A stretch of 40,318 bases of DNA from Candidatus Zapsychrus exili (lineage in GTDB: Bacteria > Omnitrophota > Gorgyraeia > Zapsychrales > Zapsychraceae). The notes beneath the pieces are model-generated. The model did not search any database, had not been told where the DNA came from, and worked only from the letters and a program-made list of their open reading frames with translations. Positions 1-38,500 of this stretch are shown here, in pieces. The stretch lies in assembly GCA_030765585.1 (NCBI GenBank), contig JAVCCJ010000121.1, forward strand, positions 71,233 through 111,550, given 5' to 3'. Each line of letters begins with the position of its first letter. Positions within the stretch are counted from its first letter, which is position 1. The position numbers were made by a program, and so were the translations under genes.

Positions 1-3000
1 AAAGATAGAGCTATACAAGAAGGAACATTGTCTGAAGATCCTGCAGATATATTAGAGAGAAAGATTGATAAGCTAGAAGCCTTAGAAGCACTTTATCAAG
101 AAAGATTAGCAATTCTTCAAGCAATAAATGCATTAGGGTTAAGCATTTATACAAATGATGTCGCAAACGATAGAGAAAAGATTATTGATTTTGAGAAGAA
201 GATGGCGCTTCAAGCATTAAAGACAGTTGAAGATAGAACAGGTTTAGATAAAGCTGCTCTTAAAGAAGTTTTAGGAAGCCTAACAGGGTTATTAAATGCT
301 GCACAAATGGAACTTATAGAGAAGCAAGAATATGCAAGGATAAAGAAAGAAACAGAAGCAGCATTAGAGAGCTTAGAAGATAAGTATACTGCTTATATAG
401 AATCTATTAGAGAATACAATAAATCATTAGAGGCAACTAAAGAAGAAATATTTAATAGCTATATAGCTACATTAGAAGGCGAAGAAATAGATGTTGATGT
501 TGTATTAGCATTTGAAGCGTTCTTTGTAAAATTGGAAAAATCAATGCCTGTCTTAGAGCAAATAGGAAATACAATTTATTATTACGGAAATTCAGTTGCT
601 AATTTGGTTACAATTGGCGGACAAAATTCTGCTGATATGAATGAATCGACTTGGACTAATGTTAAAGATGTTGAAGGTTTAAAGAAAATTATCAATAACT
701 CTCAACAATATTCTATATTTGATGAAAACTTCGAGATTTATTTTGGTACAGTTCAAGCAACAGTAGATGGCGCTAAAAACAATCGTTATTTTGTTATGAG
801 CATTCCTTTATCTGATAAAAATTCAACAGAGATATTACACAGATTTGCACTTGGTTCAATGCAAAGCTCATGGTTTGAAGTTGATGCAGCTACAATTATG
901 AATGAAGAGCCAAGTGTAGCAGCTAAAAAAGATCATGCTGTATTAATTATTGATACTTTTGGATATAAAGGCGACAAATTCTTCGCTGGTGTTGTAGGCG
1001 CGATGAAAGTTAGTACAAGCTCTGATAATGTAATAGCAGCTGTTGAAGGTATTTTAGATTATGAAATCTCAAGTAAAAGCAGACTTATCTTAGAACTTGG
1101 TTATGGATATGCATCTAAAGATGAAACAAGAACAGTAAAATTATATGATCCTATAACAAATCAAGAGATGTTTAGTGAAGATATAAGATTGTCAAATAGT
1201 GACAATTTTGATTCAGAAAAACTTACGTTTAGACATAGCTTTGGAGATAATGTTTCTCTTGATCTTGCCTTAAACAGAGTACATGAAGATGATTTTATGG
1301 ATATCTTTGAAGAGCAAACAGCTATATTCGGTTCAACTGGAATTCAAATGCATTTTGGAGAGTTCCAACTATCAGCAGAACAAGCATTTGATCATAAAGG
1401 CCTAGTTGATAGAAATGCGATAAAAGCTCGTTGGGGTAGAGTAAGTGGTGGGTTTGCTAATATAGAAGGAACACAAACTTATAATGCAGGAGTTGATGTT
1501 ATAAAGACTGATAAGAGCAGAGTTTACTTTGGATATAGAAAAGATGTAAGAGGAAACGATGCATTTAATTTGTCAGCTGCACATAGAGTATCTGATGGTA
1601 TCACATTAAATGGTGGGTTAAACACATCTGATGGAAAGAAATTCTTAGGCTCATTAGGTGCGACATTAGATTTAATTCGTTTTGGAAAGAGCAAAGATAA
1701 AGGCCCTCTTCTTTCTATCACAGTAGATAAAACAAAAGCAGATAATGAAATCTTCCCAGAAGGATTAGATCATAATGCAGCTGAAGGTGAGTATAGAGTA
1801 GAGATAGAAGGATATAAAGATATCTCAACTATTAAGAGCACAGAAGTTGTTGGAACAGATGATCAAGTTCAGTTCGGTTTAGAGGCTATGAAGATATCTC
1901 TTGAGAATATAATAGGTCGTTATATAAATGAGAATGTAGAGTTAGGTCGTGCTACTTTAGAATCACTATCTAACTTACCTGCAGCAAACATATTTGGTGG
2001 AGCAATATTCTTTGATGGTCAAATGCCAAAAGCATTAACAGGAAAAGAGATGAGCTTAGCAGTTAATATAGGTTCTGATGAAGCTCTTAATAGCCCATAT
2101 ATAGGATATTTAGGTGGAGCTGGATATTATTTAAGAGTACCTGTAAATGGAAGAATGCATAGTATATCTCTTGGAAACAGCTCAGAGGTTATGGTTATAT
2201 TACCAGAGACTTTAAGAAAATATTCTGATGTTACTGATATGACAAGCGAGTATCCAGTATTGGTTGAATCAAGCATTCCAACCGCAGAAAGAGTGGGACA
2301 TTATTTAAGTAATTATGGTTATATGTCAGTTGCAGGAGTTGGATTTGTTGAAATAACAGAGAACGTGATAAATGCTTTAACTGATGCAAGCGTATCTAAT
2401 GGAACGCTTCGTAATTGGGAAACGATACATAATCTTACATACAATGGAGCTGATCTAAGTGGAGCACATATTGAATATGGTCTTTTAGGAATATCAGCAT
2501 TTGAAGCTAGAGCAGACGCAAGATATGGCGTGCCAACAAAGAGCGGAGTTATTTATTTAACAGAAGCACAAGCAGATGCTAGAGCAGAAGAACTTGGATT
2601 AGCTTGGTCTCAAAAGTTAGGTTCAAGCGTTACTGATAATTATATTTTCTCAGTTCCTGCTCAAGGAATTGATTATGTGATAGCAGATGATATTTTTGTA
2701 GATACTTATAATAGAGAAAGAATAGCCGCTAAGTTGCCAAAGGATTATGTGGGTAAGAGTAAGTATATTTGGATAGATAATGCTGAAATTTCACGTGCTC
2801 ATGTTTTCACTTTGAAAAGCTTAGCAAAAGATTTTGATAATATAAGAAAAAATGCTGCTCATATTATGAGAATAGGCAGAAAAGGCAACACCATTGAAAG
2901 ATTCTATTTAGGCGCAGATTTCTGGAGCACAAAGGTAGAGATAATAGATAATAGCAAAAATTATAATAATATTTATGATATGGAAAATTATATTATTAAG

Positions 3001-6000: not shown

Positions 6001-6555
6001 ATTAATGAATATCTTAAGAATATGTATATTTATAATCTTGTTAATACGTCAGCGGATAAGCTTGCGCATGTAACGATGGTACATAACTACTTCTTCTATA
6101 AATCATTACAATGGAAAGACGGAGAAACACAAGGTAAAAATATTGATAGAAATAATTTTGGTCAACATTTAGTTGAAAAACATTATGATCTATGGTCAAT
6201 ATTATTATTGATAACAACAACAGCTTCTAAGTTTATAACAAAGCATAGCACTATTCATCAAAATGATGTTGAGGCATATTTTAAAACTCCAGGCTTTATA
6301 AGATTCTATGAAAATGGTGGAAGAAAAGCAATTAATGAGTATCTTGTTGATGCTGCTGTAGATATATTCGAAGCTTTTGATGGTGATAATTACAAGAAGT
6401 CAACAGCAGAGGCATTAAGACAAAATGCATATGATTATATAAGAAGTGGTTTCATGTTCTTAAAAAGCCAGCTAAAGGAAATGAAAAAGCAAAAAACAAG
6501 CAATAGAAAAAGCCTCTATAAACAAGATTTTGCCAAAAGCTTATCCAGACATTAA
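1..6555 (+). CDS. Giant multidomain protein, segment 1 (5' truncated): coiled coil, beta-barrel-like region, RAGP/HE module, beta-rich extracytoplasmic region, TM helix, FKS1 N-terminal domain
   Basis: Frame 1 is open from base 1 (aaa gat aga gct ata caa gaa gga aca ttg), so the TTG at 28 is probably not the start. The ORF runs over 2175 codons, and its last ~280 aa resemble the FKS1/callose synthase N-terminal domain, which continues in the next frame. Confidence 0.9.
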   Translation, partial: KDRAIQEGTLSEDPADILERKIDKLEALEALYQERLAILQAINALGLSIYTNDVANDREKIIDFEKKMALQALKTVEDRTGLDKAALKEVLGSLTGLLNAAQMELIEKQEYARIKKETEAALESLEDKYTAYIESIREYNKSLEATKEEIFNSYIATLEGEEIDVDVVLAFEAFFVKLEKSMPVLEQIGNTIYYYGNSVANLVTIGGQNSADMNESTWTNVKDVEGLKKIINNSQQYSIFDENFEIYFGTVQATVDGAKNNRYFVMSIPLSDKNSTEILHRFALGSMQSSWFEVDAATIMNEEPSVAAKKDHAVLIIDTFGYKGDKFFAGVVGAMKVSTSSDNVIAAVEGILDYEISSKSRLILELGYGYASKDETRTVKLYDPITNQEMFSEDIRLSNSDNFDSEKLTFRHSFGDNVSLDLALNRVHEDDFMDIFEEQTAIFGSTGIQMHFGEFQLSAEQAFDHKGLVDRNAIKARWGRVSGGFANIEGTQTYNAGVDVIKTDKSRVYFGYRKDVRGNDAFNLSAAHRVSDGITLNGGLNTSDGKKFLGSLGATLDLIRFGKSKDKGPLLSITVDKTKADNEIFPEGLDHNAAEGEYRVEIEGYKDISTIKSTEVVGTDDQVQFGLEAMKISLENIIGRYINENVELGRATLESLSNLPAANIFGGAIFFDGQMPKALTGKEMSLAVNIGSDEALNSPYIGYLGGAGYYLRVPVNGRMHSISLGNSSEVMVILPETLRKYSDVTDMTSEYPVLVESSIPTAERVGHYLSNYGYMSVAGVGFVEITENVINALTDASVSNGTLRNWETIHNLTYNGADLSGAHIEYGLLGISAFEARADARYGVPTKSGVIYLTEAQADARAEELGLAWSQKLGSSVTDNYIFSVPAQGIDYVIADDIFVDTYNRERIAAKLPKDYVGKSKYIWIDNAEISRAHVFTLKSLAKDFDNIRKNAAHIMRIGRKGNTIERFYLGADFWSTKVEIIDNSKNYNNIYDMENYIIKVGQLDTFKQDLQKEVDVLQKQIDEINRKINSGVNDPAKSRAGHTEADVNREARALITSGVTSNASRGWAKATENDKWVSDVIKYYTKINSEVKAQKLDSLVDAGYVRAGPMVTAYGANVIVANNEYVLIATNDNPSMDATLVHESNGGTHLENLQAELAYLEAKLGPIQRKLVGLEATKEDSDAVVSTTSKTEIDVDGNLRITIANILWNTEIIEIRDSKTGKLMRKELPLSKEIVHYDVETGNETYVTDLDNKEGIALNINGTIVSNVVGVFNIAETIDSVGNNIKIVSFVNTRSFTDAILSECDNYASIRRTTYYSDGSIYRDETGFTTILKQTENTVEGMFENVNEYDFRNRDTYIDRGYAFPTREVETRTNGEWFKLHDIIRKGDLKLEDIEVIDFNKLIANEPIFIAFNALGIDSATILNLTDVITVDDIHTFDFRKPYDPQERKIISVRQEQGQVIEIIVGVEFDPRTGEVVKSYKLTSDYRIKGMFVTEKEKVRAEKIFGEYKEVYASAVNDRFPEESLNTLEKYLEASGIALCSDLIVVNEYPALLVTDNETSNSTYTNIFGRALKHYLIPNDSRGRDIAVLYPSKDLGINLWSFEGRDIKVRYNGDEPKSFKTKVGTNPGVISVNANERNMLQGVQIYKAADIEEEAFNVELRGKNKEGELNKGDVVATVTGGKGEMLKVKYANGLKVEGYEYLVLDSKFKRSVVYTLGGRLLAEKFAYVVSQVAKKELSVATNGEEIMIFDVSSPIRLPIQSYLMNGTLEDGTVLKVFADQDFSIDSTGEFNRQKNVFVVNEAEGLAPDQFYSHEYTYLDDELQNKSRYKMFEQWLNHTQAWRIFGTIISVYIGIVVLSGLIARIIKRIILRFRANDKKADPNVVQKYSLDDIEKYVATIDDFAGFGFNEGTIKQIKNNLKALIERRLKAGESFEEIFGEFFDRFVNVWFIPVMTKKVAIKNADGSKDKKTSLLSDTEAKETLEKIGYGLDGKQDFDEDKINEYLKNMYIYNLVNTSADKLAHVTMVHNYFFYKSLQWKDGETQGKNIDRNNFGQHLVEKHYDLWSILLLITTTASKFITKHSTIHQNDVEAYFKTPGFIRFYENGGRKAINEYLVDAAVDIFEAFDGDNYKKSTAEALRQNAYDYIRSGFMFLKSQLKEMKKQKTSNRKSLYKQDFAKSLSRH
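940..1680 (+). other. Amphipathic beta-strand region, possible outer-membrane beta-barrel domain
   Basis: Alternating hydrophobic, Gly and aromatic strands with short turns: LILELGYGY, LTFRHSFGDNVSLDLAL, FGSTGIQMHFGEFQLSAE, TYNAGVDV, VYFGYRKD, FNLSAAHRVSDGITLNGGL, FLGSLGATLDL. Confidence 0.5.
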
Positions 6556-9500: not shown

Positions 9501-9900
9501 CGGTTATCTATCAATCATTAGTTTATAATGCTTTTTCAACAGGTTTCCAGAAAGCTATGGTTAATAATGGAGATTATATTAAGACAGGACGTAGGCCAGG
9601 ACGCGACCACGTACATCCGTTTATGGATACAAAAGGAATAGAAGATCAAGGGCAACAAGATCTTTATTTCTTCTTAAATAAAGCTAATTTCCCTAAAGTT
9701 GTTTATGCCACTATTTTAGCTATAGTAGGTCTTTTCCTATGGCGATCATGGGGTAGCATTTGGTCGATTTTCCCTGTTCTTATGGTTTTTGCATCATTAA
9801 TGGCCCCAGTATTAATTAACCCTGGGTCTACGCCAGTTACAATTAGCACAAAAAGATGGTGGAAACAGCATAAAAGAGATGGTAAGAAGTTTGTTGAAAA
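5690..9900 (+). other. FKS1/callose synthase-like 1,3-beta-glucan synthase (GT48), spanning the frameshift
   Basis: Collinear motif matches to FKS/CalS consensus as recalled: FGFNEG (FGFQKD), HQNDVEAYF (NYDDLNEYF), AWNMIVRQYLLDDLIS (WNEIIxSFREEDLIS), RIKFFLSTLFMD (RISFFxNSLFMD), EWDNF, RLWLSFRYQPLARSIRGMM (RLWASYRGQTLxRTVRGMM), GKPMNQ at 8693 (GKPENQ), RGEIVQMMDMNQDMYLEE, RYHYGHPD at 8960, NEDIF with ED at 9041 (SEDIF), KGRE, KFGAGAGEQ, YIKTGR, APVLINP. Confidence 0.93.
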
Positions 9901-14815: not shown

Positions 14816-15000
14816 TTTAAGATTGGAGATGAAGGGGTTAATATTGTAACTTTGCCTGAAGGGTCTATTGTCGCTGATTTATTGGCACATTTTAGAGTTA
14901 ACTATTTTGGCAATAATGTAGAAATGAAAAGTCTAGAATCGTATAACAAACTTGGCTTAAGATCTGTTTTAAAAAATGGTCAATTAGTTTATATAAAGAA
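14200..15000 (+). other. RelA/SpoT (p)ppGpp synthetase-like domain plus TGS domain, interrupted by an in-frame TAA
   Basis: DLDDLARMRIV, KYGFESNDT, LEVQIMS, EADHG...SYE match the RSH synthetase motif order. Then IYV*FKIG...TLPEGSIVADL...LKNGQLVYI matches TGS (IYVFTPxG...LPxGATPxDF...LxNGDxVEI). Confidence 0.8.
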
Positions 15001-30000: not shown

Positions 30001-33000
30001 GCCTGATATGAGACGAGTCATAGCATTTCATTTAGATACTGTGATGCCTCAAAAGAGAACAGATTATTTTGCTTTTGTAAATATTATTAATAAATGGTGT
30101 GACAAATTTGGCATTCCAGAGAATCAAAGATATTTATGGTACGGAGACTTAAAAGTAGCAAAAGACGGCGAATTAAAACAAATGAGCGATACAGAATTCA
30201 AAGTGTTGATAGAAGATATAGACAATAGAGATTTGAAGGTAGAAGAGTTTAAAAGAGCCGCTTTAGTTGCAGAAGACTGCCAGTATAATTTCTTTACGGC
30301 AATGAAAATGCAACTTACTTTGTTATCAAGTAAATTGAATAGTTTAGGTGGTTCTAATTTAGTTTTTGGAAGCACAGGCCCATCTTATGAAGGAAAAGGT
30401 CATGTTGCTTTTGTTGAGTCAGGATATGGCGATAGACAGCACGCTTTTATGGGACTAGGAGAATATCATTTTGCAGCTTCTCAAGCGCCTCAAAATGGAG
30501 GATATTCTGACATAATTGGTAAATATGGATATTTAACTTTTGCTATACCAGAATTTGTTCAGAGAAAAGATGCAAATTTAATTTGGATCGTTCTTGATAA
30601 TAAGAAACGTAATACTGTGCTTAATATGGTTGAAGGTAATCATGGAATAGATGTTAATGAATATCCTGCTGTTGGTTTGCAAAAAAGTAATGGCATATTA
30701 ATAGTGGATAATGCATCAGCTTCTGAGTTGCTTCTGAATAAATATCCTTGGGACTTTAAAGTGTTTAAGAATAGAGATTGGGTTTTTAATTTAGGAAAGC
30801 AGTTGTTTATACGTACAAGTAAAAGATTAGGTGTTTTAGTTAAGGATTTGACAGAAGAACAGTTTATTAACGCTGAAGGATCGCATGGACTTATTAGAGA
30901 TATAAGAGAGAAAAATTTAAAGTCGCTTATTAGCTCAATGAGTTGGGATAGATGGAAAGAAGTTGTTATTTCTGGGTTGAACAAAAATATAAAGCTTTCT
31001 AAGCCTGAAGCATTTGCAAGAAAGGTATGGGGGAATAATTTTGTTGATGAAATAATAGTAGCTCGTAAAACAAAAGATGAGTTGCTTGAAGAAGAAACCC
31101 TGCTAACTGGAGACACTGAAGATTTTTATCCTAAATTAATGCAGGCGCAGGAAAGATTAATGAGATTGCAAAAGGTAGTGGTTCTAGCTGATCCACATCT
31201 TGATGATAGTTTCTTGGCTGATCCAGATATGTTTAAACAGCTTATTGAGGCAGAATTTATACGAGTATATTCTATTTGCGCGACAATAGGGTCAGAAGCA
31301 GTAAGCGATAAATTAATTAAAGAGATGCTTGAATATATATTGACTTGGGATCAAGAAAAGATTGATATTGCAAGAAGTTTAAATAGGCAAGGGGCGGCAA
31401 AGACTATATTGTTAATGGCGATTAAGAATTCAGAATCAAAGAGTTTACTCTCTTATAATGTTCGCTCTAAAATGACAGAGGCAGAGTGGGACTTGCGCAC
31501 ACAATTATTCTTTAATTATGTAGCTATAAAAATGTTAAAAGCAGAAGAATTAAAAGCTAAGGAAGAAGTTAGTTTAAGATTCAATTATCTATTAAAAAGT
31601 TTAGAAGATAAACCAAAATGGGGATATAAAGATGTTGCCTTGATAGGTAAAATGAAGGGCATTGTAAGAATTATTGAGAACAAGACAGCTATGCTATCTT
31701 GGGGAATTATGTACAAAGATATTTTTGACCCTCTAGAGCCTAGCTATTATGCTTCAGGTGTAAAGCTTGGTACGGCAAGTTTAAAAGATATAGATAGTAT
31801 AATGACAATAATGAAAATGATAATAGATAAGCATGGCAGGATAGATGTAGTTTTTGGTAATGGAGAAGGATTCCAAGATTATGGAACGCATGCAACGGTT
31901 GAGGCGACTGTTATTGCTGCTTTATTAAATTTTGTTGAAGAAAAAATAATTGATCCAGCTAAATTTAAATATATAACATATGCTGGTGTTTGGGAGAGAA
32001 CAAAAACAGAGGAAGCTAATTTAAGTATTGTTTATACAAAACGAGAGATAGAAGAGTTTAAAGAGAGATTTAGACAGCTTTATGTATCGCAAGCTCCAGC
32101 AGAAATACCTGATGCAGGACATGAACAATTAATACTTTTCTCTGAAGCTGTAGAGAGAAATGGGCTAAAGACTGCAGATGAATTAAAATCTATAATTGAG
32201 CTAGATTCTAAAGTCGTTAATATTTTAGATGAAGGCGGTATAGTTCTTAATTTTAGAATAAGAAACTTATCTGATAAAGATGTTAGAAGAGGTTTACAAG
32301 ATAAGGTTAACGAGCTTAATCATCTTCGCGGCATACTTAAACAAACAAGTTATGTAGCGCTTTATGGCGAGTTGCCAACCAACAATTTTCCTTTACCGAC
32401 GGACAATCTTCATAAAAATTTTGACCCACGAGGTAGCGCTATCTTTGCTGCACAGTTAATGAAGGATAAATCTATTCTTAATTCTCATGTCTGGCCGCTT
32501 ATGATTGTTGGTATGATTGGCAGCATGCCATTGTGGTTGGGTTATGTTGCAGTGGTATCAATATTGGCAGTTATTGTATTACGTTACATTAAAAATCGTT
32601 GGAGCATAGTTAAAACTAAACAAGAAATTATATTAAATGAGTTAGAAAATATAGTGTTTAAAGAAGGCGATGACGTAGCAGAATATTTAAGAGATGAATC
32701 GCGTATAAAAGGGAAGGCAGATAAGGTGTTTGTGCCTCGTGATTATATAGAGATAGAAAAGATTTTAAGAGAAGCAAATAGAAGAAAAGTTCCTGTTACT
32801 ATTTCTGGTGCACGTACTGGCTTGGTTGCGGCAGCTGTTCCAAATGATGGCTGGGTTATTAGTATGGAACGTATAAACGAAATTATAAAGATTAAAAAAA
32901 ATAAAGATGGCAATGCTGGAAGTATTGTTGTGGGAGCAGGCGCTAGATTAGGTGATATAAGAGAAGCGGCAGAAAATGAAGGTTTATTTTTCCCAGTTAA

Positions 33001-36000
33001 TCAAACAGAGGTTTCAGCAACTATGGGTGGAGCTATTAATACAAATGGTTCTGGAAGCTGGGTATTTAAATATGGTATAACAAGACAATACGTAAAATCC
33101 CTTAGCGTTGTCTTGGCAAATGGACAAGCTTTAAGAATTGATAGAGGAGAATATTTCTCTGACAAGCAGGGATATTTTAGGATTCCTTCATCAAATGGAA
33201 AGAGATTAAGATTAAAAGCTCCTAGCTACAAAATGCCTTCCGTCCGCAGTTCTGCGGGATATTATTCAAAAGAAAATATGGATTTAATCGATTTATTTAT
33301 TGGTTCAGAAGGAACTTTAGGAGTAATAGTACAAGCTGAGCTAGAGCTTATTAAAAAGCCTGAAAATATTTTAACCGCTTTAATATTCTATGAAGAAATA
33401 AAAGATGCACTTGCTTTTGTTAGTCAAGCCAAGAATATATCCCGCGCCAATTGGAAAGGCAAGCCTAATAATTTCTCATTACGCGCTATTGAGTATATAG
33501 ATATATCAGCTCTTAGATATTTAGAGGACACGAAATATAGCGGAATTATTCCTGCTTGGGTTTTTGATAATAATGGCGAGAATCCTTGTGCTATTTTAGT
33601 TGAGCAGGAATTACCGAAAGATGTAGATCTTAATAATATTTATGATAATAGCGAAGTTGATCAGCTCTTATCTTTAATAGGAGAAGGTCGTCTAGATGAT
33701 ACTATTGTCGCAGATCCAAAGGATATTTTATCATATAGGCGAATAGTTGATTTCCGAGCCGTAATTCCTAAGACAATAAATGATAAGAGTAATGTAAAAA
33801 TAGAAAAGATGGGAACAGACTTAATAGTTCCTGAAGATAGAATAGAGGAATTTTTGTTGTTTGCTATTGCAGCACTCAAAATGTCTGGCACGCAATATGC
33901 TATTTGGGGACATATTAGCGAAGCGCAACTGCATATTAATCTTATACCTAAAAATGCGCAAGAACGTCAATGGGCAATAAAAGATTATGATCAGCTTGTA
34001 GCTGAAGTTGTGGATATGGGCGGAAGTGTTGCAGCCGAGCACGGAATAGGGAAATTAAAGCATAGATATTTAGAAATGATGTATGGCAAAGAAGCTATTG
34101 ATCAAATGTTAGCGGTCAAACTTGTTTTAGACGAGAATATGATATTAGGAAAAAATAACATATTCTCAAACAACGGAGACGATATAAGTAGAGCTTTAAT
34201 GCTTAATTTGGATCATAGAGCAGCAAAAAAAGTAGGTATTATAAAAGAGAAATCTAAAGGGAAAAGATATGTTGTTGCCAAGTCTCAACTTATTGAATTA
34301 ATTGAAAATTATGTAAGAATTGGCGCAGAAGAAGATAGAAAAATAGAACTTTTAAGCAAAATGGAGTCTATTGTCGAGAAACATCCAAGTCTTTATTTAA
34401 ATATTATATCAAGATATATGCTGGAGATAGATCGATTTGCTCGCAATGTTTTAAGTGAGTTAGTCCATAAGCTTTTAGTAAGTGGATCTGATGCACTTAC
34501 CCCAGATGTTTTAGAATTGATGCGAAAAGGATTTGTTTTAAGCCTTACTCGAGCTCAGAGACATAATCTGCAAGTAACAATAGAAGAAGCAGTCGAACAG
34601 TATTCAGATAAAGTTGGAACTAGTTCTATTCCTTTAGTGCTGAACTATTACGTTCTTATAAATGATAAAGAACGTGCTGTTAAGGACTTCCCTTATCTAT
34701 TAAATATAGTTTTATCTAGCCAAGATAAAGAAAATGTTTTTATATCAGAAATTCGCATGTCTAATGTAATTGAAGTAGCGCCTGAATTATTTGATGATAT
34801 CGTTTCTTCTTATATAAAAGAAACAAATCCTACCATTAAAGAGAAGTTAAGCGATGCCATTGCTTCAAATTTTAAAGAATTTATGCTGGAGACTAGCGCA
34901 GATAGGCATATTTTAAAATATTTAGATTATTTAAGAAGAAATGCGAAAAGTGATATAGAAAAGATAAACTTTGTAAAATGTATATTAAATATAACAAACT
35001 ATGATACAGAAAAAACTTCTGATATAGATAGTTTGATGATTTTGATAGATTCTGTTTATGATTCTGCTATACCATCTTTAAGCAATGAGTCTTTGATGCT
35101 GACAATCTCCAATTTGACTGACTCGATAGGTTCTTCTAATATTCCTTTAAGAGTTTACGAAAGAATAAAGGGGATTAAAACAGATAGTCAAGAACAAGAG
35201 TTTATTAAGTCTAGGATATTGTCTGAGGCAGATAATGGTGTTAATAAAAACAATGCTGTGCTTTATTCATTCGTTCCTTTATTTATGATATTTGCATTAG
35301 TCTCCCCAATAGTTGAATTTGTTAATAGTTGGATAATTAGTAATCCTGCCTTAATTATATGGACCCCAATAGTTGTTGGTGGAGCTTTTGGAACGTTCTT
35401 AAGGGTTAAGATGTCAGATCATATAGGTCAAAAGCTTAGCAGAATTTTCCCATACGGAACTTTAATTGTTAATTTGTTGGGAACTTTTATTTTAGGTTTT
35501 GTAATTGGTACTGTAAGAGCAGGGCAAGGCTTTGTTCCTGTTTGGGTTGTAGCTGGATTCTTGGGAGCATTTACTACATTCTCAACATTTATATTAGAGA
35601 GATATAATTTAGTAAAAGATAAAAAGAGCAAGAACGCATTAATATATATAGTTGCAAGTATTATCGGTGGATATATATTATTTGCAAATGGCAAAATATT
35701 TGGAACATTAAGTTTTGACAAAGGCTTTAATATGTATATTTTGGCCTTATCTTTAATAGTGCCTGTAGCTGTTCTTAAGGCTATAGGCTTAAGGTTAAGA
35801 GAGCTAGTTAGAGATATTTTTAGCTCTATTAAGTTAAAAGAACTACTTGCACTATTAACAGGTGGAATGTTGGGTGCTTTCTTGCGAGTTTGGTTGTCGT
35901 CCTTTACGGAAGAACCGTTCTTTGTAAATATTATTGGTGCATTCTTTATAGGGGTATTTGTTGTTCTTCTTAAAAATACTATTTTAAGAAAGTTATTCTT

Positions 36001-38500
36001 TGTGACAGGTCTTTGTGGAGCTTTTACAACATTTGCGACTTTTATTCTTTTCGCAGATTCTTACTTGGGCACGCAAGGTTTACCTATATCAATTGGATAT
36101 ATACTGTTTAATCTTTTAGTGGGTATTGCAGTATTTTACGCAGGGCTTTATTTGACGAAGTTTATTAAAAATAAATTAGATTTAAATTTTCTAGCATTGG
36201 ATAAAAAACAGCTTCTTTTAATGCAAAACTGTTTAATAAATTATCTAAGAGAGAAAGGCCCAGAGGCTGGGCTTGTTCGTTTATTAATGAATAAGCTTGA
36301 TTTTAAAAATGATGTTAAGGTTGTAAATGGTAAAGCTATTATTCGACTTAACTCGGCAATTGAAATTTTAGGCGAGGATGCTTTAAGAGGTATTTATCTT
36401 ACAGAAAAATATGTATTACCTGACGGAGGAGTTACTTATCATGTAGATGAGAATGGAAAAATGTTGCTTCTGGATATCAATTCTTCATCTGCTTGGATTG
36501 GTGCTGATATGGAGGGTCGTGAGGATTGCAAAGCTTGTGTTATAAACGAAGATGGAGAAAAAGTTTGTATTTTAGGTTTGATTGATTTTGATAAAGAGTT
36601 AAGCGAAGAAGAAGAGAAGCGATGGAGAAAATGTAAAAGAAGATATGGTTTTATAAGAATTATTCGCACACGTTATGCATATTTCCCACAAATTTTTTAT
36701 GGATTATATGACGACGGAGAAGACATTTTGTTTGGAGCGGTTTCAGGTCCTTTCGTCCTTTGTTCAGGTCCGATGCAAATTTTGACGCAAGCATTAATGG
36801 CTTTTATGATATTAGTAGATTTATCATTGGCAATAATAGTTAAAATATTTTGGACGATATGGCGCATGACAAGATGTTTATATTTGGCTGATAAGGGTGG
36901 CAAAGAAGGTAAGAATAAGAAAAAGATTGTTGTAGACATAGGAGACGCATGCAAGGATCCAGTCTATAAATTAGCCAAGAAAGAATTTCCTAAAATTAAT
37001 TATTTCTTAGATTTATTTATTAGGGTTATCGTAAGAACTCCTCTTTATATTCCTTATGTTTTTGTTTGTCGTACTTGGCTAGGATGGCGCGACATAGAGT
37101 ATATAACTCGCGCTGTAGATCCAGAGGAAATAGAAATAGTAGACAGTCTTGTGACGCCAGACAGAACTATTTTTGATAAATTAAAAGAATATTCAATTTA
37201 TAAATTTGATTATTTAAGAAAGTTAGGACGCGAGCGTAAGAATATAAAATATAAGAAAGCTTCGTTACGTTTAAAATTGATTCAGAAAAGCGAAGATTCC
37301 TTGGAGCGTTTCCTACGTGACAAGAAACATATATCGTCTTATAAGAAATTAGGACAAGAAAGATTTAATGACAAAAGATCTAGAGAGCTTGAACATGGGT
37401 TTATTTGTATTTCTTTAGGTTATGATGGAAATATTTATCACCTTGCAGGAGTAGAGTCTTTTGTAAGATTATTACGGGCAGTATATGGTAGTAATTTATA
37501 TGATATATCTAAAGAATATTTGAGTACAGAAAGTCAAAAAGAAGCTTATGGCGCAATTAATAAAATAGTAAATAGAGAAATGCTAGGACAGAATAAGTTG
37601 GATCGCAAAAGATTATTAGAGCTTTTACAGGGGTTAATATACTTTGGTTTAATGGAGGATGGCGATATTATTCCTTATACGGGTGTTAAACATTTCAGAA
37701 GGCTTTTAGCTGCTAAACATGGAATGCCTCCAAAGAGGCCTATGCCACCAATGATTAATATAAAAGAGGTAATGAAATTATGCCAAGCTAAAATAATGCC
37801 TATTTGCATAGATATTCCAGGTGTATATATTCGCACTCATGCTCAATGTTCAGGGCATAATCAGAAGCCAAGATATAATCAAAGATTTGGACATTCGCAA
37901 AAATCAAAGCATAACCAGAAATCAGGCCATTCTCAATTATTAGGACATTCGCAACAATCAGGTTATTCTCAGCTATCAAAGCATTCACAGAAGATAGGTC
38001 ATACGCAGAAATCAGACCATTCTCAGTTATCAAAGCATTCACAGAAGTCAAAGCATAGCCAAAAATCAGGTCATTCTCAATGGTCTAAACATAGAAAAGC
38101 TCCAAGATTAAATTCAATTAAAGTAGTTAAGCATGAAATTGAACAAAGAAAGCAGTTTCATACAATTATTAATTATAAAGGCAGAGGTAATATAATAAGG
38201 CCTGCTGGAAGCGATAGGCTAAGAGAGACTTTCTTTAAGGTTATAAGATTTGGTGGGCAACGCGCCTCAACCATGCTTAAATGTGCTCATTCTCCGAGAC
38301 TTGCTAGTTCTCAATTAGCAAGAGACAATATGATTAGCAAAATTATTCCTTTGGAGCAGGTGAAAATTAACACAAAGATGCTTGCTAAACGAGAAAAAGG
38401 AGCGTCTTATATAACTCTTAACTATAAGGGAGATATAAGAATGCCTGCTGGAGTTGGAAATATAAGAAAAGTTATTTTTAAGACAATTAGGGAGATTTAA
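14816..38500 (+). CDS. Giant multidomain protein, segment 3 (about 7,890 aa): chain of enzyme and membrane cargo domains
   Basis: Same frame as segment 2 (6530 and 14852 are both 2 mod 3). It is open directly after the TAA (FKIGDEGVNIVTLPEGS...) and ends at TAA 38498-38500. Confidence 0.92.
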   Translation, partial: FKIGDEGVNIVTLPEGSIVADLLAHFRVNYFGNNVEMKSLESYNKLGLRSVLKNGQLVYIKKLSGKMPGMSRLKYHDMKSYRGKLKWTEFSKPSDKKDATVKGKQMLEKATKVLFAGKREKERLRILSDVVSKIGFKFSGANDLAELYRAIYFEALTVDEASDFIVKAQNKIKRYIPYAAGEEGKDDKKTNMNAFNPLLLLGLNSFVSGEMLLAVGVLSIIAIVAWFVLRRSSPALSNISRLFILIFKKALPYKFNKETAHKRSIEGEDNVIKDKSSEKFSNMFDTSDNLLRALDDQGIYRLISLVKRFRKEALNTLLSPLSRGDFFSRVKIAVSNFKFMSQLSDSKDKKYGGVNWDRCILATLFCSNLGFIAFGKDGEVKQEFEDIVQWDFKRENRIIKNTAPYLSLAGLETYRRQYISDLKHVYISEYIARTKIFESKLFRNVFTEKEKKIISFLIWYHHTLIELAGYGALKDQADLSVMLRDILDVSNSTGLSKKELLDMLYAATLSDSFLKGKTKAVGLNTAAKKTMLGIIDVLNEEYTEDSASIEVVKKLCEDKILNQIRELRSEPDAIFTEHLAEMIKHKTYDEIRPLVEAYKLASWGYFGARRQEKFDSLEGKKMRRSVIVHAVRTLRHHITYDVETNIIKILHDIFEDTEIPEEIIEEIFGKDILYCLQLLNKKRIEAKLSLGIKLYFIETIYRWKLIAKQRMDIFYEKYGFYYNEKQYAYYMAILFSYGGYKTQLAKCADLVDNFLTIAAKRNKSGLLAKYAGIAIPFIIEMSILNKEDKHEFLNNLLKGITILLKQRDIDAGLIKQCEQFRKTVHYYRNFIENDSKKIESVSLIQKFLYGRSKTVKSFIKIFGIAVPLFSVYARRIVRYILPYIFIDNLKKEYRSDTLGRTRVLIKGNSLYITGKRRMLWILLRFITVFIINKTIRTIFTGVLEEKDVSYLSVRKIKKSHRSIFDANLLSVSPILLLDSNFVILAVIFFISYRIFNHYLSNAPPIKVKGKRQSVKDYKLKPLEQIVIQFLSDLFRGWYRRINSAWGRIRISALTVFSYDNRLPRAVDFAREKPNSTLPDDPIEREFAVQQEIRSTNTVASFELSYVRDAIKISLDIVGLHDSEIHQILVNMLSLEIRAGPMKNIYGAFKENILYLDKTLLNPRNWKKLIKTLIHEAGVPLGRSDTQNEKFAFSFNDKLKKNPFKNIRYYKNYRKIVSSLKKIDIDINFAKNIICSLELPLFLQFNRLYWNREYPEKRILREEIETMQWYIKSFKKLELLTVEAVEAKLLRDVKKHVGDVAYEQTKRVIDGIRSKHEGVVGKTYNRQTLRYAIKETAKIICLTRVQLERQEKRGLLFTKFNVKGKNIDELPIIPIDNKGNILEHLLFWANDYDKVPNSDYYRARKMSIRDLAYEKYKDSPQQLKILFAFLKPQVTFASVSAPIFLIGLDPTVLLLSAIVVAIGFVVFKLLNNKRSDNKLEKDAGIKTYTNVTKQYTEDIIKEAVRQQRDALLEALVRHNEGTVGSLPREQDIFFLQDFSGETTLSARVLDSKCGIVQEDLYRRLSMLKAYVDNGTGIKIFLHNAFNIFFTRGHAFLVVSDGKEIFLVDTSFEQFFVLNNGDKKENGYEGYIIRTKKDNGSWKKIAYELREKGYVRLTQEFLEMYASILRQEYNLTREATVEDMLASDPYYLQYDDSRLKQWLGDVVVPQWAKDYRIEFLTNSLADEAVVLNSFLFPISLILVFVCLFVQNGSGTEFVYDIFAWMQTLISSSSEEVYCAASLLLASFVSGKDPDSSEANEMVLDALEEAGIDFTKLTYDKWATLLALANSLDKSITTDRGKIRFEQFKRSIKDLSSIDIAVDGRVLFEHKVAKISRSRLAYFIGKPGEMAADLLFVQAQANINKNQFNKPRGWKIAIVIDLPLKKSVLDDIKNNLIAFVEKDKRLSNLNGFIKDGNVEVLVRSEKNISEDVSDFLYDLSDRKGTIIVKGLKDSKYLDLFSARRFYLLRAKDKKEAVVSGVLRGDVVIGYIPRRYKNRLALDRETLRSITLYRNLKYWFQVLQDDAPKRKKAQEEIISAEAMFLYLLPLLLYFKESKRKIHPIFIKRGSLLLIEPWKSLIDKLKDLGIANFDSNYTTERISSYKEEGDLAKTINTILNPREIQRPVSGLLWKKVLEAYNNLDESDRNIILGFLRKNSANDNIEFKDLEGKKIGQIVMLISEAGIDERYQNFFLKRKLAKKNWNIDDEDIENIRSIDSQLAEQIENLLHYKESQPELFTEEIRDLFFRYDGNLSQEMRNKTKHIVRPILNLLLSETKFYKLIKEKEVMLIDEALAGGATVITSELIMNSFDDGNVFRFAAIDMWDPAYSPSSIVDILVTSNSMIEEDAPEKLEVLRYAKVEIDGVAKYEEITIFRAIEELKEEYLSSIGEEGKDISNKELESIVRRKVGSDMWGSEFNMKLDRFINKYFIDYISDDYSFDVIKSLIKNYLRQHDVSLVDFKEIKAPYGWKHSSVKKFKENSDKILGTLRQLDKEGNENIEEMRKLDRGVSDLDMLKTLFDWQKESETYKNRQKEGIEKIGENVTFRNFIVKYINGPSTVSKASQIYEQKQEAVKEYPQFLGTSDKIKMAVFDWDGTLSRIREGWEHILTVLVAVMIAGKHLQDSEWTDIITSIIKGESTQDHFRLPLIKTLVEKGRIDEESLKWAYDMVENSKGLTNREQVYSVYREAQNRGINEDKFNWVIDHFERKSGLSPPKEVYDLLTQFFLDKVYELRGARLEMIRNSNISFKKFLFPKTVEFLYKLNEIDVPCYILTGSDKSGVVEEAKALGLSDLVVDIIGFDIDEKETKGKDKIMQVLIDRSINDKFIEHSQEVLVIGDGKVEIKAGKDIGCLTIALKNQENKKSFEYIEKLEPDFIIELLSTKERIKQGVKRDIFRALQEGKKKSTVRILEDLVSLSSGEEIAEDYIETVKIPSAKELLPLRYFPPVSNPNITLNAVYDISEENGHDVEGYRRKLVLFKVGDKEHVEDFGDLLIESIKKNISDLSDWCIACRIATPEHATQMLGEYIAERLKLDVVYLEQREWPVGYVNMTRAERYKAAQDITVILSPEKIQNKKVIVIDDVVDSGGILSGLATTLMKAEAKKVSAFVVFRSAESSFEREIYPSLFKDPVFLRDVIIRMKGKIALGGIKYLMRFIEDDLQVFSETILNLQDDTRKEMFKRSLQYLQIVPNKYAAYLIHSMLSLIAQEKYGQVYEDLSFDNKIFVLSETKKMFSRGDLSDEDHTLFVSSQDWISPSLAVFYAYLKGYNFVVFKDRRDLSGEENLVKHREKTEEALQAAKIFMVFVGSPYYTTLSRKIYAKEEKEERVLPKEYRAELRLLSNKLKRIRNEHRSAINKLNTLEKHLIMEYASFYAEKSIKIFEEICNLAVDVLEKEGVSISSQDFSISLVGSVAREEATVESDIEFDYIAKNEVVAKTIEKALAPLLAYSLRRVGFDIGPSDELYNRHISTRYQLKTNKLFDVRMREQDRLSTLIRFLDYRLVYGSESVYETFLILVRKEIMGDYSKSLAMVVNATNEYIEIAKLGHGRFSGRNFVVLYDLARKVSFDVKWIVNLVEIAMKEMTIRKLPMLLTDKFFSIDKMPKKKAELLEFFNSHAFFNNDTLEQVENVVRSYRRLLQYRQEKAARNALNKPTKFYPEFIGDISVVGSFVLKHIASRRAVEVPIVQNETTGKDIKIFTDSFPDGETYLRILNPLDVKQGNLSVICELNSCKDFVKIMLLTGALRFYGAKEIHLVLSTSSDIIGDNGQEYILHHYSNSVSYAGGGLVKILSESHRVKNKGHIVIDRVLYQHARFKNDADKASRKLFVESEKIEIVKIEENPLCWNVSLPSNIKNKNVALIHSTENDQDIVELWFMLIALRDAEVKSVSLVSTYEGYSRQDKIFKPGESKSSEIILNIINKFVDKHITFNVHYGEESGWIKLDSLDIYNANMFVSLVKGMINWMIKKSGNINQFLEEVKRHPILLLGPDDGSFPYVEEIVAVVKSYLKQQYGVEIDIYSGYLDKFRESGTKVVIPGYILGKDGEKIVKVGGVDINECWSLVLDDETSYGSTLLVATFALVRKMGFSWQRILSGIVHGKLARGLQPFETGWDEDEIGEVKEPKSEYIDEEKEHMAPRALFSTKSVNLPEIFPVQQEIRIGSAIGNLLSSLDKSDNDALPFYSFIIPAFLFIYIVLLFRYVILSSFMSPIERVNGKWLDYRIESLKNKLAWIQRLFHAPPKTAATTDVATVATPIIATIITSNSASKVVPVVDETKKENVNQPSLQVLSICYLNVFRSRILSIYFRRLWYEHNIFNATGRRIIFLDRGFVAASSDIIEKTCDLIRSYLQREESPLKDVLLGHYSKDINKVVKIRPRTVSEKNILESNIILVAKESHKSEILKKYGHILDKNKHIRVYLISEFLPETHFFYKKDVPDVGEHPVVDEKDAIVEWTPYKLLELYQLLDFDNILNQLSIKLPNVEEALSLKIKDFCEDNQELLWKIMREKLAANSWSMQKRIKVGNICGPFSYMLAKVLCAVFDASLVDMKDITFMPEGGFVSVDGKYRQHAWINFCYKGKPLLIIDPTRFQYDDKYKDKILVDNYDLEKYGYRPAENYLREQLGIIMEDEINLVKSNYFNIGDQRKKGKLNLREELLYLFVSFEFLANSPNKIFGRRQVYSYGLIIEEMLKQVSLEGDNREKALSYFDNNLAVDNPDFNCFVLPAFLPLLISFNFGFVEVTVAMIIFALLIDVATGAITTFIGQLFATRFAIRKWDYKFAFKMGIWGATVGAQIYLFFNLINLIIPAEIGLTTEFIRTVLLGAFGVFVLFESNIISYLISKKENSINEEVNKMISLSLQDKAKEIREFLRNPKNIDWVFIIVPLGAFKDFLSQRLDNEIFYIISGMVIFIFHRFIYERTNSIVVPFVKKTLNLISPAKDKSGFIYEELYKNVQMDLVQVNDKVEAANVAAARFFYHLQQWFNGEGKKDLDAMFTLMLATGNSPEMAYKKIADVLNSWYAAKTQKWLIKNGINLTVKPDMRRVIAFHLDTVMPQKRTDYFAFVNIINKWCDKFGIPENQRYLWYGDLKVAKDGELKQMSDTEFKVLIEDIDNRDLKVEEFKRAALVAEDCQYNFFTAMKMQLTLLSSKLNSLGGSNLVFGSTGPSYEGKGHVAFVESGYGDRQHAFMGLGEYHFAASQAPQNGGYSDIIGKYGYLTFAIPEFVQRKDANLIWIVLDNKKRNTVLNMVEGNHGIDVNEYPAVGLQKSNGILIVDNASASELLLNKYPWDFKVFKNRDWVFNLGKQLFIRTSKRLGVLVKDLTEEQFINAEGSHGLIRDIREKNLKSLISSMSWDRWKEVVISGLNKNIKLSKPEAFARKVWGNNFVDEIIVARKTKDELLEEETLLTGDTEDFYPKLMQAQERLMRLQKVVVLADPHLDDSFLADPDMFKQLIEAEFIRVYSICATIGSEAVSDKLIKEMLEYILTWDQEKIDIARSLNRQGAAKTILLMAIKNSESKSLLSYNVRSKMTEAEWDLRTQLFFNYVAIKMLKAEELKAKEEVSLRFNYLLKSLEDKPKWGYKDVALIGKMKGIVRIIENKTAMLSWGIMYKDIFDPLEPSYYASGVKLGTASLKDIDSIMTIMKMIIDKHGRIDVVFGNGEGFQDYGTHATVEATVIAALLNFVEEKIIDPAKFKYITYAGVWERTKTEEANLSIVYTKREIEEFKERFRQLYVSQAPAEIPDAGHEQLILFSEAVERNGLKTADELKSIIELDSKVVNILDEGGIVLNFRIRNLSDKDVRRGLQDKVNELNHLRGILKQTSYVALYGELPTNNFPLPTDNLHKNFDPRGSAIFAAQLMKDKSILNSHVWPLMIVGMIGSMPLWLGYVAVVSILAVIVLRYIKNRWSIVKTKQEIILNELENIVFKEGDDVAEYLRDESRIKGKADKVFVPRDYIEIEKILREANRRKVPVTISGARTGLVAAAVPNDGWVISMERINEIIKIKKNKDGNAGSIVVGAGARLGDIREAAENEGLFFPVNQTEVSATMGGAINTNGSGSWVFKYGITRQYVKSLSVVLANGQALRIDRGEYFSDKQGYFRIPSSNGKRLRLKAPSYKMPSVRSSAGYYSKENMDLIDLFIGSEGTLGVIVQAELELIKKPENILTALIFYEEIKDALAFVSQAKNISRANWKGKPNNFSLRAIEYIDISALRYLEDTKYSGIIPAWVFDNNGENPCAILVEQELPKDVDLNNIYDNSEVDQLLSLIGEGRLDDTIVADPKDILSYRRIVDFRAVIPKTINDKSNVKIEKMGTDLIVPEDRIEEFLLFAIAALKMSGTQYAIWGHISEAQLHINLIPKNAQERQWAIKDYDQLVAEVVDMGGSVAAEHGIGKLKHRYLEMMYGKEAIDQMLAVKLVLDENMILGKNNIFSNNGDDISRALMLNLDHRAAKKVGIIKEKSKGKRYVVAKSQLIELIENYVRIGAEEDRKIELLSKMESIVEKHPSLYLNIISRYMLEIDRFARNVLSELVHKLLVSGSDALTPDVLELMRKGFVLSLTRAQRHNLQVTIEEAVEQYSDKVGTSSIPLVLNYYVLINDKERAVKDFPYLLNIVLSSQDKENVFISEIRMSNVIEVAPELFDDIVSSYIKETNPTIKEKLSDAIASNFKEFMLETSADRHILKYLDYLRRNAKSDIEKINFVKCILNITNYDTEKTSDIDSLMILIDSVYDSAIPSLSNESLMLTISNLTDSIGSSNIPLRVYERIKGIKTDSQEQEFIKSRILSEADNGVNKNNAVLYSFVPLFMIFALVSPIVEFVNSWIISNPALIIWTPIVVGGAFGTFLRVKMSDHIGQKLSRIFPYGTLIVNLLGTFILGFVIGTVRAGQGFVPVWVVAGFLGAFTTFSTFILERYNLVKDKKSKNALIYIVASIIGGYILFANGKIFGTLSFDKGFNMYILALSLIVPVAVLKAIGLRLRELVRDIFSSIKLKELLALLTGGMLGAFLRVWLSSFTEEPFFVNIIGAFFIGVFVVLLKNTILRKLFFVTGLCGAFTTFATFILFADSYLGTQGLPISIGYILFNLLVGIAVFYAGLYLTKFIKNKLDLNFLALDKKQLLLMQNCLINYLREKGPEAGLVRLLMNKLDFKNDVKVVNGKAIIRLNSAIEILGEDALRGIYLTEKYVLPDGGVTYHVDENGKMLLLDINSSSAWIGADMEGREDCKACVINEDGEKVCILGLIDFDKELSEEEEKRWRKCKRRYGFIRIIRTRYAYFPQIFYGLYDDGEDILFGAVSGPFVLCSGPMQILTQALMAFMILVDLSLAIIVKIFWTIWRMTRCLYLADKGGKEGKNKKKIVVDIGDACKDPVYKLAKKEFPKINYFLDLFIRVIVRTPLYIPYVFVCRTWLGWRDIEYITRAVDPEEIEIVDSLVTPDRTIFDKLKEYSIYKFDYLRKLGRERKNIKYKKASLRLKLIQKSEDSLERFLRDKKHISSYKKLGQERFNDKRSRELEHGFICISLGYDGNIYHLAGVESFVRLLRAVYGSNLYDISKEYLSTESQKEAYGAINKIVNREMLGQNKLDRKRLLELLQGLIYFGLMEDGDIIPYTGVKHFRRLLAAKHGMPPKRPMPPMINIKEVMKLCQAKIMPICIDIPGVYIRTHAQCSGHNQKPRYNQRFGHSQKSKHNQKSGHSQLLGHSQQSGYSQLSKHSQKIGHTQKSDHSQLSKHSQKSKHSQKSGHSQWSKHRKAPRLNSIKVVKHEIEQRKQFHTIINYKGRGNIIRPAGSDRLRETFFKVIRFGGQRASTMLKCAHSPRLASSQLARDNMISKIIPLEQVKINTKMLAKREKGASYITLNYKGDIRMPAGVGNIRKVIFKTIREI
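16150..16370 (+). other. GlnD/CCA-type HD-domain C-terminal-like helical region
   Basis: ISFLIWYHH...LLDMLYAATLSD resembles the 'LVxxH...LxxLYxLTxAD' pattern. Confidence 0.35.
16590..17170 (+). other. HD domain of the SpoT/Mesh1 (p)ppGpp hydrolase type
   Basis: AYKLA...IVHAVR...LHDIFEDT (HD at 16766)...IEEIFGKDI...LLNK...LAKCADLVDN. Confidence 0.8.
19300..19960 (+). other. Papain/transglutaminase-like Cys-His-Asp domain 1
   Basis: KCG (Cys 19469), GHAFLVV (His 19589), FLVDTSFEQF (Asp 19634). Confidence 0.6.
21050..21970 (+). other. Divergent type I phosphoribosyltransferase-like domain with helical insert
   Basis: IFIKRGS, and a PRPP-loop-like VMLIDEALAGGAT at about 21782-21820. Confidence 0.45.
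22676..23560 (+). other. HAD-superfamily hydrolase domain
   Basis: Motif I FDWDGT (22694), motif II ILTGS, a Lys in KGKDK, motif IV VIGDGKVEIKAG. Confidence 0.88.
23780..24260 (+). other. Type I phosphoribosyltransferase domain (ComF-like)
   Basis: KKVIVIDDVVDSGGIL...LMKAEAKKVSAFVV. Confidence 0.85.
24950..25930 (+). other. GlnD/GlnE/DUF294-type nucleotidyltransferase domain
   Basis: SLVGSVAREEATVESDIEF (GS...DxE at 25142), LDYRLVYGS, FDVK, and a helical substrate-binding tail. Confidence 0.8.
25985..27400 (+). other. Ribose-phosphate pyrophosphokinase (PRPP synthetase)-like region with a duplicated N-domain
   Basis: FPDGETYLRI, GYSRQDKIFKPGE, GPDDGS, LDKFR, VLDDETSYGSTL, IVHG. Confidence 0.85.
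27755..28300 (+). other. Low-molecular-weight protein tyrosine phosphatase/ArsC-like domain
   Basis: P-loop ICYLNVFRS (CX5RS, Cys 27773), PRTVS...NIILVAKESHK, DVPD. Confidence 0.8.
28380..28800 (+). other. Papain/transglutaminase-like Cys-His-Asp domain 2
   Basis: NICGPFS (Cys 28472), QHAWINF (His 28601), IIDPTRFQY (Asp 28649). Confidence 0.7.
29130..29650 (+). other. Multi-TM domain, weakly Mpv17/PMP22-like
   Basis: GAITTFIGQLFA...WDYKFAFKMGIWG...YLFFNLINLIIP pattern. Confidence 0.35.
29750..30740 (+). other. Glucosamine-6-phosphate deaminase (NagB)-like domain
   Basis: LMLATGNSPEMAY (LGLATGSTP), AFHLD (TFNLD), GHVAF (GHIAF), YPAVGLQ, LIVDNASASEL. Confidence 0.85.
31170..32150 (+). other. 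PIG-L/LmbE-family N-deacetylase domain fused to NagB
   Basis: VVLADPHLDD (PHPDD) at about 31178-31207, DYGTHAT, YAGVW, YVSQ. This matches the long NagB plus PIG-L fusion layout known from Bacteroidota. Confidence 0.75.
32670..34170 (+). other. FAD-linked oxidase (GlcD/D-lactate dehydrogenase, VAO family)
   Basis: SGARTGLVAAAVP, ATMGGAINTNGSG, FIGSEGTLGVI, WGHISEAQLHINL, AEHGIGKLK. Confidence 0.93.
35366..36160 (+). other. Tandem CrcB/Fluc fluoride-channel domains joined by an extra TM helix
   Basis: Copy 1: GGAFGTFLR...FPYGTLIVNLLGTFILG...GFLGAFTTFSTF. Linker: MYILALSLIVPVAVL. Copy 2: GGMLGAFLR...FVNIIGAFFIG...TGLCGAFTTFATF. Confidence 0.92.
37838..38092 (+). repeat. 14 imperfect 18-bp tandem repeats encoding [HY]-[SNTA]-Q-x-S-[GK] hexapeptides
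   Basis: HAQCSG HNQKPR YNQRFG HSQKSK HNQKSG HSQLLG HSQQSG YSQLSK HSQKIG HTQKSD HSQLSK HSQKSK HSQKSG HSQWSK H. Confidence 0.92.

Follow-up and report, generated by a model that had tools for sequence, protein, structure and literature searches.

The stretch of DNA analysed here (the window, 40,318 nucleotides, contig C24 71233-111550 of Candidatus Zapsychrus exili, an uncultured Omnitrophota bacterium of salt lakes) carries three giant open reading frames (ORF1 to ORF3). Judged by comparison with related genomes, these frames and a further one upstream of the window (ORF0) are one gene by descent, of the type of the giant protein Archaeovorin. The window would hold the last 12,800 codons of this gene, coding for a membrane-threaded chain of enzyme modules. 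A gene inherited as a single reading frame would here have acquired three lineage-specific lesions, namely a -1-type frameshift upstream of the window (junction J0), a +1-type frameshift (J1) and a nonsense codon in place of an arginine codon (J2), and these appear to be recent mutations. On balance we favour, with some reserve, the reading that the lesions are real and recent and that the gene is undergoing decay or is truncated.

Four frames in one locus

The whole locus (contig C24 37451-109732) covers 72.3 kb and ca. 24,100 codons, in four consecutive frames of 9,937, 3,548, 2,776 and 7,894 codons. Of its three junctions J0 and J1 are frame changes and J2 is an in-frame TAA. The first frame, ORF0 (contig 37451-67264), lies outside the window, and ORF1 as a whole extends over contig C24 67141-77787. 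A preliminary description of the window, made from its letters alone, had stated that the frame is open from base 1, that there are just two interruptions within 38.5 kb and that every called start is a TTG. The ORF listing (1-6555, then 6530-14815 and 14852-38500) agrees on all of this, the interruptions being a shift of the reading from frame 1 into frame 2 and the TAA at 14813-14815. ORF1 and ORF2 differ by +1, while ORF3 is in the same frame as ORF2, so that the second interruption can only be an in-frame stop. The description had also expected the gene to extend upstream, and the contig bears this out, with 1,364 more codons of ORF1, then a third break and the 9,937-codon frame; because the frame continues so far upstream, the TTG at position 28 is meaningless as a start. 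The size then given, more than 12,800 codons, was right in pointing to a giant locus and understated its extent. The locus as it stands is not a single ORF of tens of thousands of codons, whereas the homologous sequence of its relatives is a single frame.

The geometry of the ORFs alone is no evidence of one gene, since in this compact genome 178 same-strand pairs of ORFs of at least 120 codons show an overlap between different frames, and in 137 pairs one stop is all that lies between the two ORFs. Ordinary operons give such numbers, and as an estimate of the error rate of the assembly the counts do not discriminate either. As the layout is uninformative, homology across the breaks becomes the deciding test.

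Homologous sequence in relatives runs across the breaks

In the relatives the homologous sequence is continuous at all three breaks, as the preliminary description had supposed in joining the pieces into one gene. Uninterrupted homologous sequence was found at J1 in nine of nine genomes and at J0 in two of two, and a residue stands at the position of the J2 stop in four of four homologues. Among the relatives examined, none is broken at J0, J1 or J2, and the same breaks provided with starts of their own were accordingly seen in none. An origin of the pieces as independent genes is ruled out by these unbroken frames. The single giant polyprotein of that description therefore stands as one gene by descent and falls as one open frame in this DNA. 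Its assignment of the organism to the Omnitrophota is in keeping with the titles of the relatives' loci, "Candidatus Omnitrophota bacterium" in three of four and "uncultured bacterium" in the fourth. It had also reported the same signature motifs in all three segments of the window, and this we could not reproduce: blastp between the four frames, a search for internal repeats, gave no inter-segment match at E <= 1e-4.

Among the genomes searched, only G036 has homologues of ORF2 and ORF3 in one frame. Its 64,491-base contig (G036:C16) is open in one frame over its whole length (at least 21,496 aa) and carries in order a homologue of ORF1 (in two blocks), ORF2 residues 11-1149 and ORF3 residues 380-833 and 1774-4198. 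The ORF2 part matches G036 residues 5124-6215 with 44% identity over ca. 1,140 residues, and ORF3 residues 1774-4198 match G036 17279-19701 with 45% identity over ca. 2,440 residues. There are also two small out-of-order matches, and ca. 7,300 extra residues stand between the ORF2 and ORF3 parts. In their make-up the giant genes of the order are mosaic. ORF3 residues 1758-2957 found no match in any of five genomes (G034, G097, G136, G140, G144), and word-index searches for closer relatives returned only the ORF2 of the window itself, or nothing.

Of the 168 genomes of the order that were searched, 33 besides this one have matches to the N-terminal 1,150 residues of ORF2, and many of these matches sit inside open frames of 10,000-74,522 aa. 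J1 was examined in nine of the 33, namely G097 and the eight in which the match extends into the first 13 query residues; the remaining 24 matched the glucan-synthase part only and are outside the count. With the last 1,000 residues of ORF1 and the first 600 of ORF2 as queries, the two flanks lie in one frame in each of the nine, a few tens of bases apart and with no stop in the 190 residues around the junction. The closest of these relatives (G005) belongs to the same family and shows 52% identity, and the last ca. 800 residues of ORF1 align to G036 residues 4362-5103 and to eight other relatives. The alignment consists of a conserved block (HHDDIE.YFRTPGFI.FYENGGR), a linker of variable length and a second conserved block ((T/S)(V/I)N.IL.K.YPDIKT..FG..GW), and the break sits in the Lys-rich linker that joins the two. 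The second block is read in ORF2 and begins ca. 5 codons ahead of the TTG at 6530, which confines the shift to 6485-~6512, a Lys-rich stretch with A-runs at 6484-6488 and 6491-6496. The called TTG itself falls within the conserved block (S/T)(I/V)N.IL.K.YPDIKT. An exact-pattern scan for the J1 alleles gave no matches.

The preliminary description had placed this cut inside an FKS domain, at ca. 6490, and here it has to be corrected. The Pfam Glucan_synthase match begins 404 residues past 6530, at 7739, and a profile built from the relatives matches FKS1 only from ca. 320 profile positions after J1. Since the N-terminal part of FKS1 has no sequence match in that profile comparison, J1 is not placed within the FKS-like unit.

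For J0, two queries were run against five genomes, one made of the final 800 residues of ORF0 and the other of the first 800 of ORF1. The former matched two of them (G034 and G136) and the latter three (G034, G136 and G144). In G034 and G136 a single open frame (44,145 and 74,522 aa respectively) contains both flanks in the expected order, and in G144 the homologue of the ORF1 N-terminus lies ca. 10,800 aa inside an open frame. J0 itself is in a stretch without detectable conservation. Past the shift the tail of ORF0 is rich in I, L and F, as is typical of out-of-frame AT-rich DNA, and the other frame reads as ordinary protein.

The third break interrupts a module that resembles the long RelA/SpoT homologue (RSH) enzymes, with synthetase-like sequence directly before the TAA and TGS-like sequence after it. 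A 600-residue read-through query, with X at the stop, was run with phmmer against 1.84 billion representatives (E <= 0.001) and gave four matches: ORF2 of the window itself and three proteins that all span the stop position, P0005 (5,502 aa, apparently the frame found in G237), P0006 (801 aa) and P0007 (755 aa). The last of these is a canonical RSH with HD_4, RelA_SpoT, TGS (417-476), AH/RIS and ACT domains. A further genome of the same order (G025) aligns to three residues past the stop, inside an open frame of 20,820 aa. At the position of the TAA the residue is Arg in G237 (CGA), in G025 (CGT) and in P0006. The J2 query matched two of 40 non-self relatives, one of 400 non-self genomes of the class and none usefully among five genomes of the same family, and a scan of JGI metagenomes with the J2-spanning protein found no relative.

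A profile made only from the modules of giant proteins and P0006 (A2) matches structures of Rel, RelA and SpoT on both sides of the stop. Its best match is Rel (6yxa_A, E 9.6e-27, profile 26-430 to chain 116-505), with an alignment that takes in the hydrolase half, the synthetase and TGS. In this comparison the TAA falls on the first TGS strand (IYV-stop-FKI vs VYVFTP), so the earlier statement that a TGS domain is cut at 14813 proved correct, and the TTG called as a start at 14852 codes for the Leu in a conserved TLPxGS, 13 codons into the domain. The module scores below the Pfam gathering threshold (RelA_SpoT, 16.6 bits vs a cut-off of 27; TGS unreported even at E <= 10). The predicted structure of the read-through RSH-TGS module was unusable (mean pLDDT 52.9, TGS part <50).

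The breaks in two public metagenomes

Two public runs (X1 and X2), labelled as salt-lake metagenomes, contain the stretch as contigs (shares 0.77 and 0.34). We compared these with 19.7 kb (L012) that span all three junctions. No substitution is listed between the run contigs and this stretch, and the sole differences are one-base deletions at 6488 and 6491 in a single X1 contig of depth 3.4, which turn A5 into A4 and A6 into A5. At J1, X2 (depth 4.09) is identical to the window. The X1 allele, 2 bases shorter, is also out of frame, and with it ORF1 would end ca. 50 nt earlier. J1 is thus polymorphic between the two public runs, with two different out-of-frame alleles. The region of the TAA is covered by an X1 contig (record 8, L012 18620-19701) with no differences. 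Given that the TAA and the J1 frameshift are present in the run contigs, ordinary decoding cannot yield one continuous chain of over 12,800 residues.

It could still be argued that the gene is really one frame of ca. 24,100 codons and that errors of sequencing or of the consensus, in a metagenome assembly of low coverage, have produced the breaks, an explanation that we hold to be unlikely. It would account for the intact frames of the relatives, and it draws on the low depth of the run contigs (~2-10, k-mer depth), on the position of J0 at short T3/T4 runs and of J1 at A5/A6 runs, and on J0, where no difference is listed and yet no listed contig piece is shown to cover the position. Yet the TAA is reproduced without any difference in an independent contig set, and stop-creating substitution errors are rare in a short-read consensus. 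The J1 state is reproduced in X2, and since both alleles are out of frame, an in-frame truth at J1 would need opposite errors in two data sets. Furthermore, among the runs of at least 5 bases in the 19.7 kb (77 of A, 30 of T) only the two A-runs of J1 differ. With such a low depth, and one of the runs possibly being the source sample, the run contigs exclude assembler artefacts better than sequencing error. At the level of sequence they argue against the former and, at J1, against simple error, and they do not settle the matter.

Two side observations concern the same contigs. The A-runs of J1 (6484-6496) could be a mutational hot spot, or reflect relaxed constraint at a frameshift. In addition, the match between the gene and contigs of both runs starts or stops at contig C24 67361 and 72457 (L012:562 and L012:5658), beyond which the run contigs diverge, and the 30-mers of their loose ends are absent from this genome. 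These ends point to another strain or organism of the lakes that shares parts of the gene; a chimera is not demonstrated.

Start signals and recoding

An SD-like motif precedes 38% of the first ATGs of long ORFs in this genome, vs 9% of control positions (a crude genome-wide count), and GGAG peaks at -13 to -9. None of J0, J1 and J2 offers a start codon (ATG, GTG or TTG) preceded at the usual distance by an SD-like motif, in line with the earlier remark that the TTG starts of the window have no well-spaced ribosome-binding site.

Another reading is programmed recoding, in which slippage of ribosomes or RNA polymerase at the two frameshift sites and read-through of the TAA would give some full-length chain. 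The location of J1 in A-runs of Lys codons, a known type of slippery sequence, and the downstream frames that stay open would agree with this. Against it, the A-runs are just 5 and 6 bases long, the X1 allele would require the opposite shift, and three different events would be needed in one mRNA. The sites are not conserved, as the relatives read in frame; RNA structure after J0, J1 and J2 is no better than in 200 shuffles (z +0.35, -1.38 and -0.13); and TAA is the stop codon that this genome uses most. On these grounds we consider recoding very improbable. A reassignment of TAA was rejected, as it is the commonest stop codon and ends 730 of 1,132 long ORFs.

Recent lesions or a tolerated split

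Under the favoured reading of recent lesions, ordinary decoding would yield only the N-terminal chain of 9.9 k residues, and the three downstream pieces would be silent or weakly re-initiated. A number of points weigh against this reading. Giant genes are presumably important to how these bacteria live, so that a loss would be costly, and this locus is the only giant gene of its genome (the next longest frame has 3,006 codons). All three lesions are in a linker or at the edge of a domain, as a tolerated split would be. In this DNA of 32% G+C every piece has remained free of further stops for thousands of codons, so that the decay would have to be very recent or the pieces still under selection. 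The collections searched contain no genome of the same genus by which selection on the pieces could be gauged. To these must be added, from the public runs, the low contig depth, the lack of a contig piece shown to cover J0, the partial or uncertain coverage of the TAA by X2, and the possibility that X1 or X2 may be the sample from which the genome itself came.

Several of these points would be expected if the fission were tolerated, i.e., if the four pieces were translated separately, by termination-reinitiation or from weak starts, and worked together like the chain of the relatives. J0 and J1 are in poorly conserved linkers of variable length and J2 is at the synthetase/TGS boundary, J1 has two different out-of-frame alleles, and there is only one giant gene in the genome. 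Modules of this kind do exist apart, since the glucan-synthase-like domain (GT48) is also found in stand-alone ORFs (3,674-5,424 aa) of three genomes (G037, G054, G048). Moreover, the locus has a C39 peptidase domain, and the accessible text of West-Roberts et al. (2023, bioRxiv 10.1101/2023.11.21.568195) proposes that C39 domains process giant chains proteolytically, in which case such chains may be cut anyway. Nevertheless, no start codon with an SD-like motif stands at any junction, a start at 6530 would cut into a conserved block, one at 14852 would leave out the first strand of TGS, and these boundaries occur in no relative examined. We regard a tolerated fission as rather unlikely. A more elaborate version, in which the breaks are tolerated, four chains are made separately and the A-tracts of J1 act as a hypermutable on/off switch for the distal 10,600 codons, seems to us quite unlikely.

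Domains of the giant protein and neighbouring genes

The features of the locus are collected in Table 1. A crude Kyte-Doolittle count gives 44 hydrophobic 19-mers along the chain.

Table 1. Junctions, reading frames and domains of the giant locus (window positions unless a contig is named)
Feature	Position	Strand	Remarks
J0	contig C24 67141-67264	+	-1-type shift; 124-nt overlap of the upstream frame and ORF1
J1	6485..6555	+	+1-type shift; 71-nt overlap of ORF1 and ORF2
J2	14813..14815	+	in-frame TAA
ORF1, 3' part	1..6555	+	open from base 1; ends at TAA 6553-6555
ORF2	6485..14815	+	2,776 codons stop to stop; called TTG at 6530
ORF3	14816..38500	+	7,894 codons; called TTG at 14852; ends at TAA 38498-38500
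Peptidase_C39, OmpA, DEAD/ResIII, Peptidase_M23, SLT	upstream frame, outside the window	+	Pfam
GT48 / FKS-type 1,3-beta-glucan-synthase-like	7739..9340	+	Pfam PF02364, 205.3 bits vs cut-off 37.2, profile 3-508 of 819
Long-RSH-like module	13952..15166	+	second half of HD, synthetase, TGS, start of helical domain; spans the TAA
TGS-like beta-grasp domain	14804..15001	+	alignment to RSH P0007 and Rel 6yxa; first strand cut by the TAA
HAD-type hydrolase	22679..23470	+	Pfam PF00702, E 1.3e-10
Phosphoribosyltransferase-like region	24080..26671	+	two Pfam matches
Pribosyltran	24080-24289	+	PF00156, E 3e-06
Pribosyltran_N	26438-26671	+	PF13793, E 2e-13
FAD-linked oxidase	32720..34147	+	FAD_binding_4 PF01565, E 4.8e-30; FAD-oxidase_C PF02913, E 1.4e-21
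CrcB-like membrane domain	35369..35692	+	PF02537, E 1.1e-36; better of 2 matched stretches

The GT48 module is like fungal FKS1 / GSC2 (PDB 7xe4, 7yuy) in its catalytic region, with a Pfam score above the cut-off and a profile match to the structure; the profile of this region in the relatives matches FKS1 (PDB 7xe4) with E 8e-54 (profile 971-1533 to FKS1 747-1316). It differs in that the host is a bacterium and that GT48 is one module of a giant protein. Besides the stand-alone ORFs mentioned above, its homologues are found inside frames of 20,000-75,000 aa. The RSH-like module, in turn, has the order of the long RSH enzymes (e.g., Bacillus subtilis Rel, PDB 6yxa), i.e., hydrolase half, synthetase, TGS and helical domain. 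Unlike these enzymes it is embedded in a giant membrane protein, scores below the Pfam cut-off, has its synthetase motifs partly changed (EVQIMS here vs EVQIRT in Rel) and has its TGS domain cut by a stop codon.

A 158-aa ORF lies antisense within ORF3 (window 30640-31116, minus strand) and is probably there by chance. The locus is followed by an ordinary gene for a 509-aa protein (window 38632-40161), with an ATG and an upstream GGAG motif, a hydrophobic signal-like N-terminus and a weak coiled-coil-type Pfam match; a terminator-like hairpin follows at 40199-40216. On the minus strand of contig C10 two frames of 3,006 and 2,280 codons (3080-12100 and 12148-18990, strand coordinates) are adjacent, 48 nt apart and in different frames, and they may be another split large gene.

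Comparison with published giant proteins

Published accounts, as far as their accessible texts go, agree with the preliminary description that Omnitrophota encode giant multi-enzyme proteins with many transmembrane segments. The type protein, Archaeovorin of 'Ca. Velamenicoccus archaeovorus', has 39,678 aa (bioRxiv 10.1101/2023.11.21.568195; PMC10066038), most Velamenicoccia genomes are reported to carry giant ORFs (Seymour et al. 2023, PMC10066038), for giants of the phylum sizes up to 85,804 aa are given (West-Roberts et al. 2023, bioRxiv 10.1101/2023.11.21.568195), and multi-enzyme metabolic ones are described up to 147,155 aa (bioRxiv 10.64898/2026.06.07.730766). The roles that these texts propose are attachment to prey cells and degradation of prey walls, and the M23, SLT and OmpA modules found here would fit such a proposal.

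With the Archaeovorin type, as described in those texts, the locus shares an Omnitrophota host, a length of tens of thousands of codons, many hydrophobic segments (by the crude hydropathy count), C39 peptidase, DEAD-like, SLT and M23 domains, few annotatable domains and poor conservation, and it is homologous to open frames of 21,000-74,500 aa in its relatives. It is unlike that type in that the frame is cut in three places. The multi-enzyme metabolic giants, in the account available (bioRxiv 10.64898/2026.06.07.730766), likewise have distinct enzyme families tiled along a membrane-anchored chain with no dominant repeat, whereas the locus here is smaller and interrupted. That account, in the same portion, deals with breaks of long ORFs at contig ends and not with internal frameshifts or stops.

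The GT48 and RelA/SpoT-like modules are unnamed in the main texts on giant proteins, the supplements of which may list more domains, and a literature search found no paper that combines Omnitrophota with glucan synthase, or Omnitrophota with ppGpp.

Meaning of the broken gene

As giant genes of Omnitrophota have already been published, the main value of the present case is in correct annotation. Gene callers give four or more "hypothetical proteins" for what is one locus of ca. 24,100 codons, with false TTG starts inside conserved domains. The analysis also adds two modules not mentioned for these proteins in the main texts, a eukaryote-type GT48 domain and a RelA/SpoT-like one with TGS. If the breaks were tolerated and J1 acted as a switch, this would be a natural experiment showing giants of the Archaeovorin type to be built from modules that can be separated. 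Should the lesions be real, as we are inclined to think, a giant gene would have been caught early in decay or fission, and this would bear on whether such proteins need to be made as one chain.

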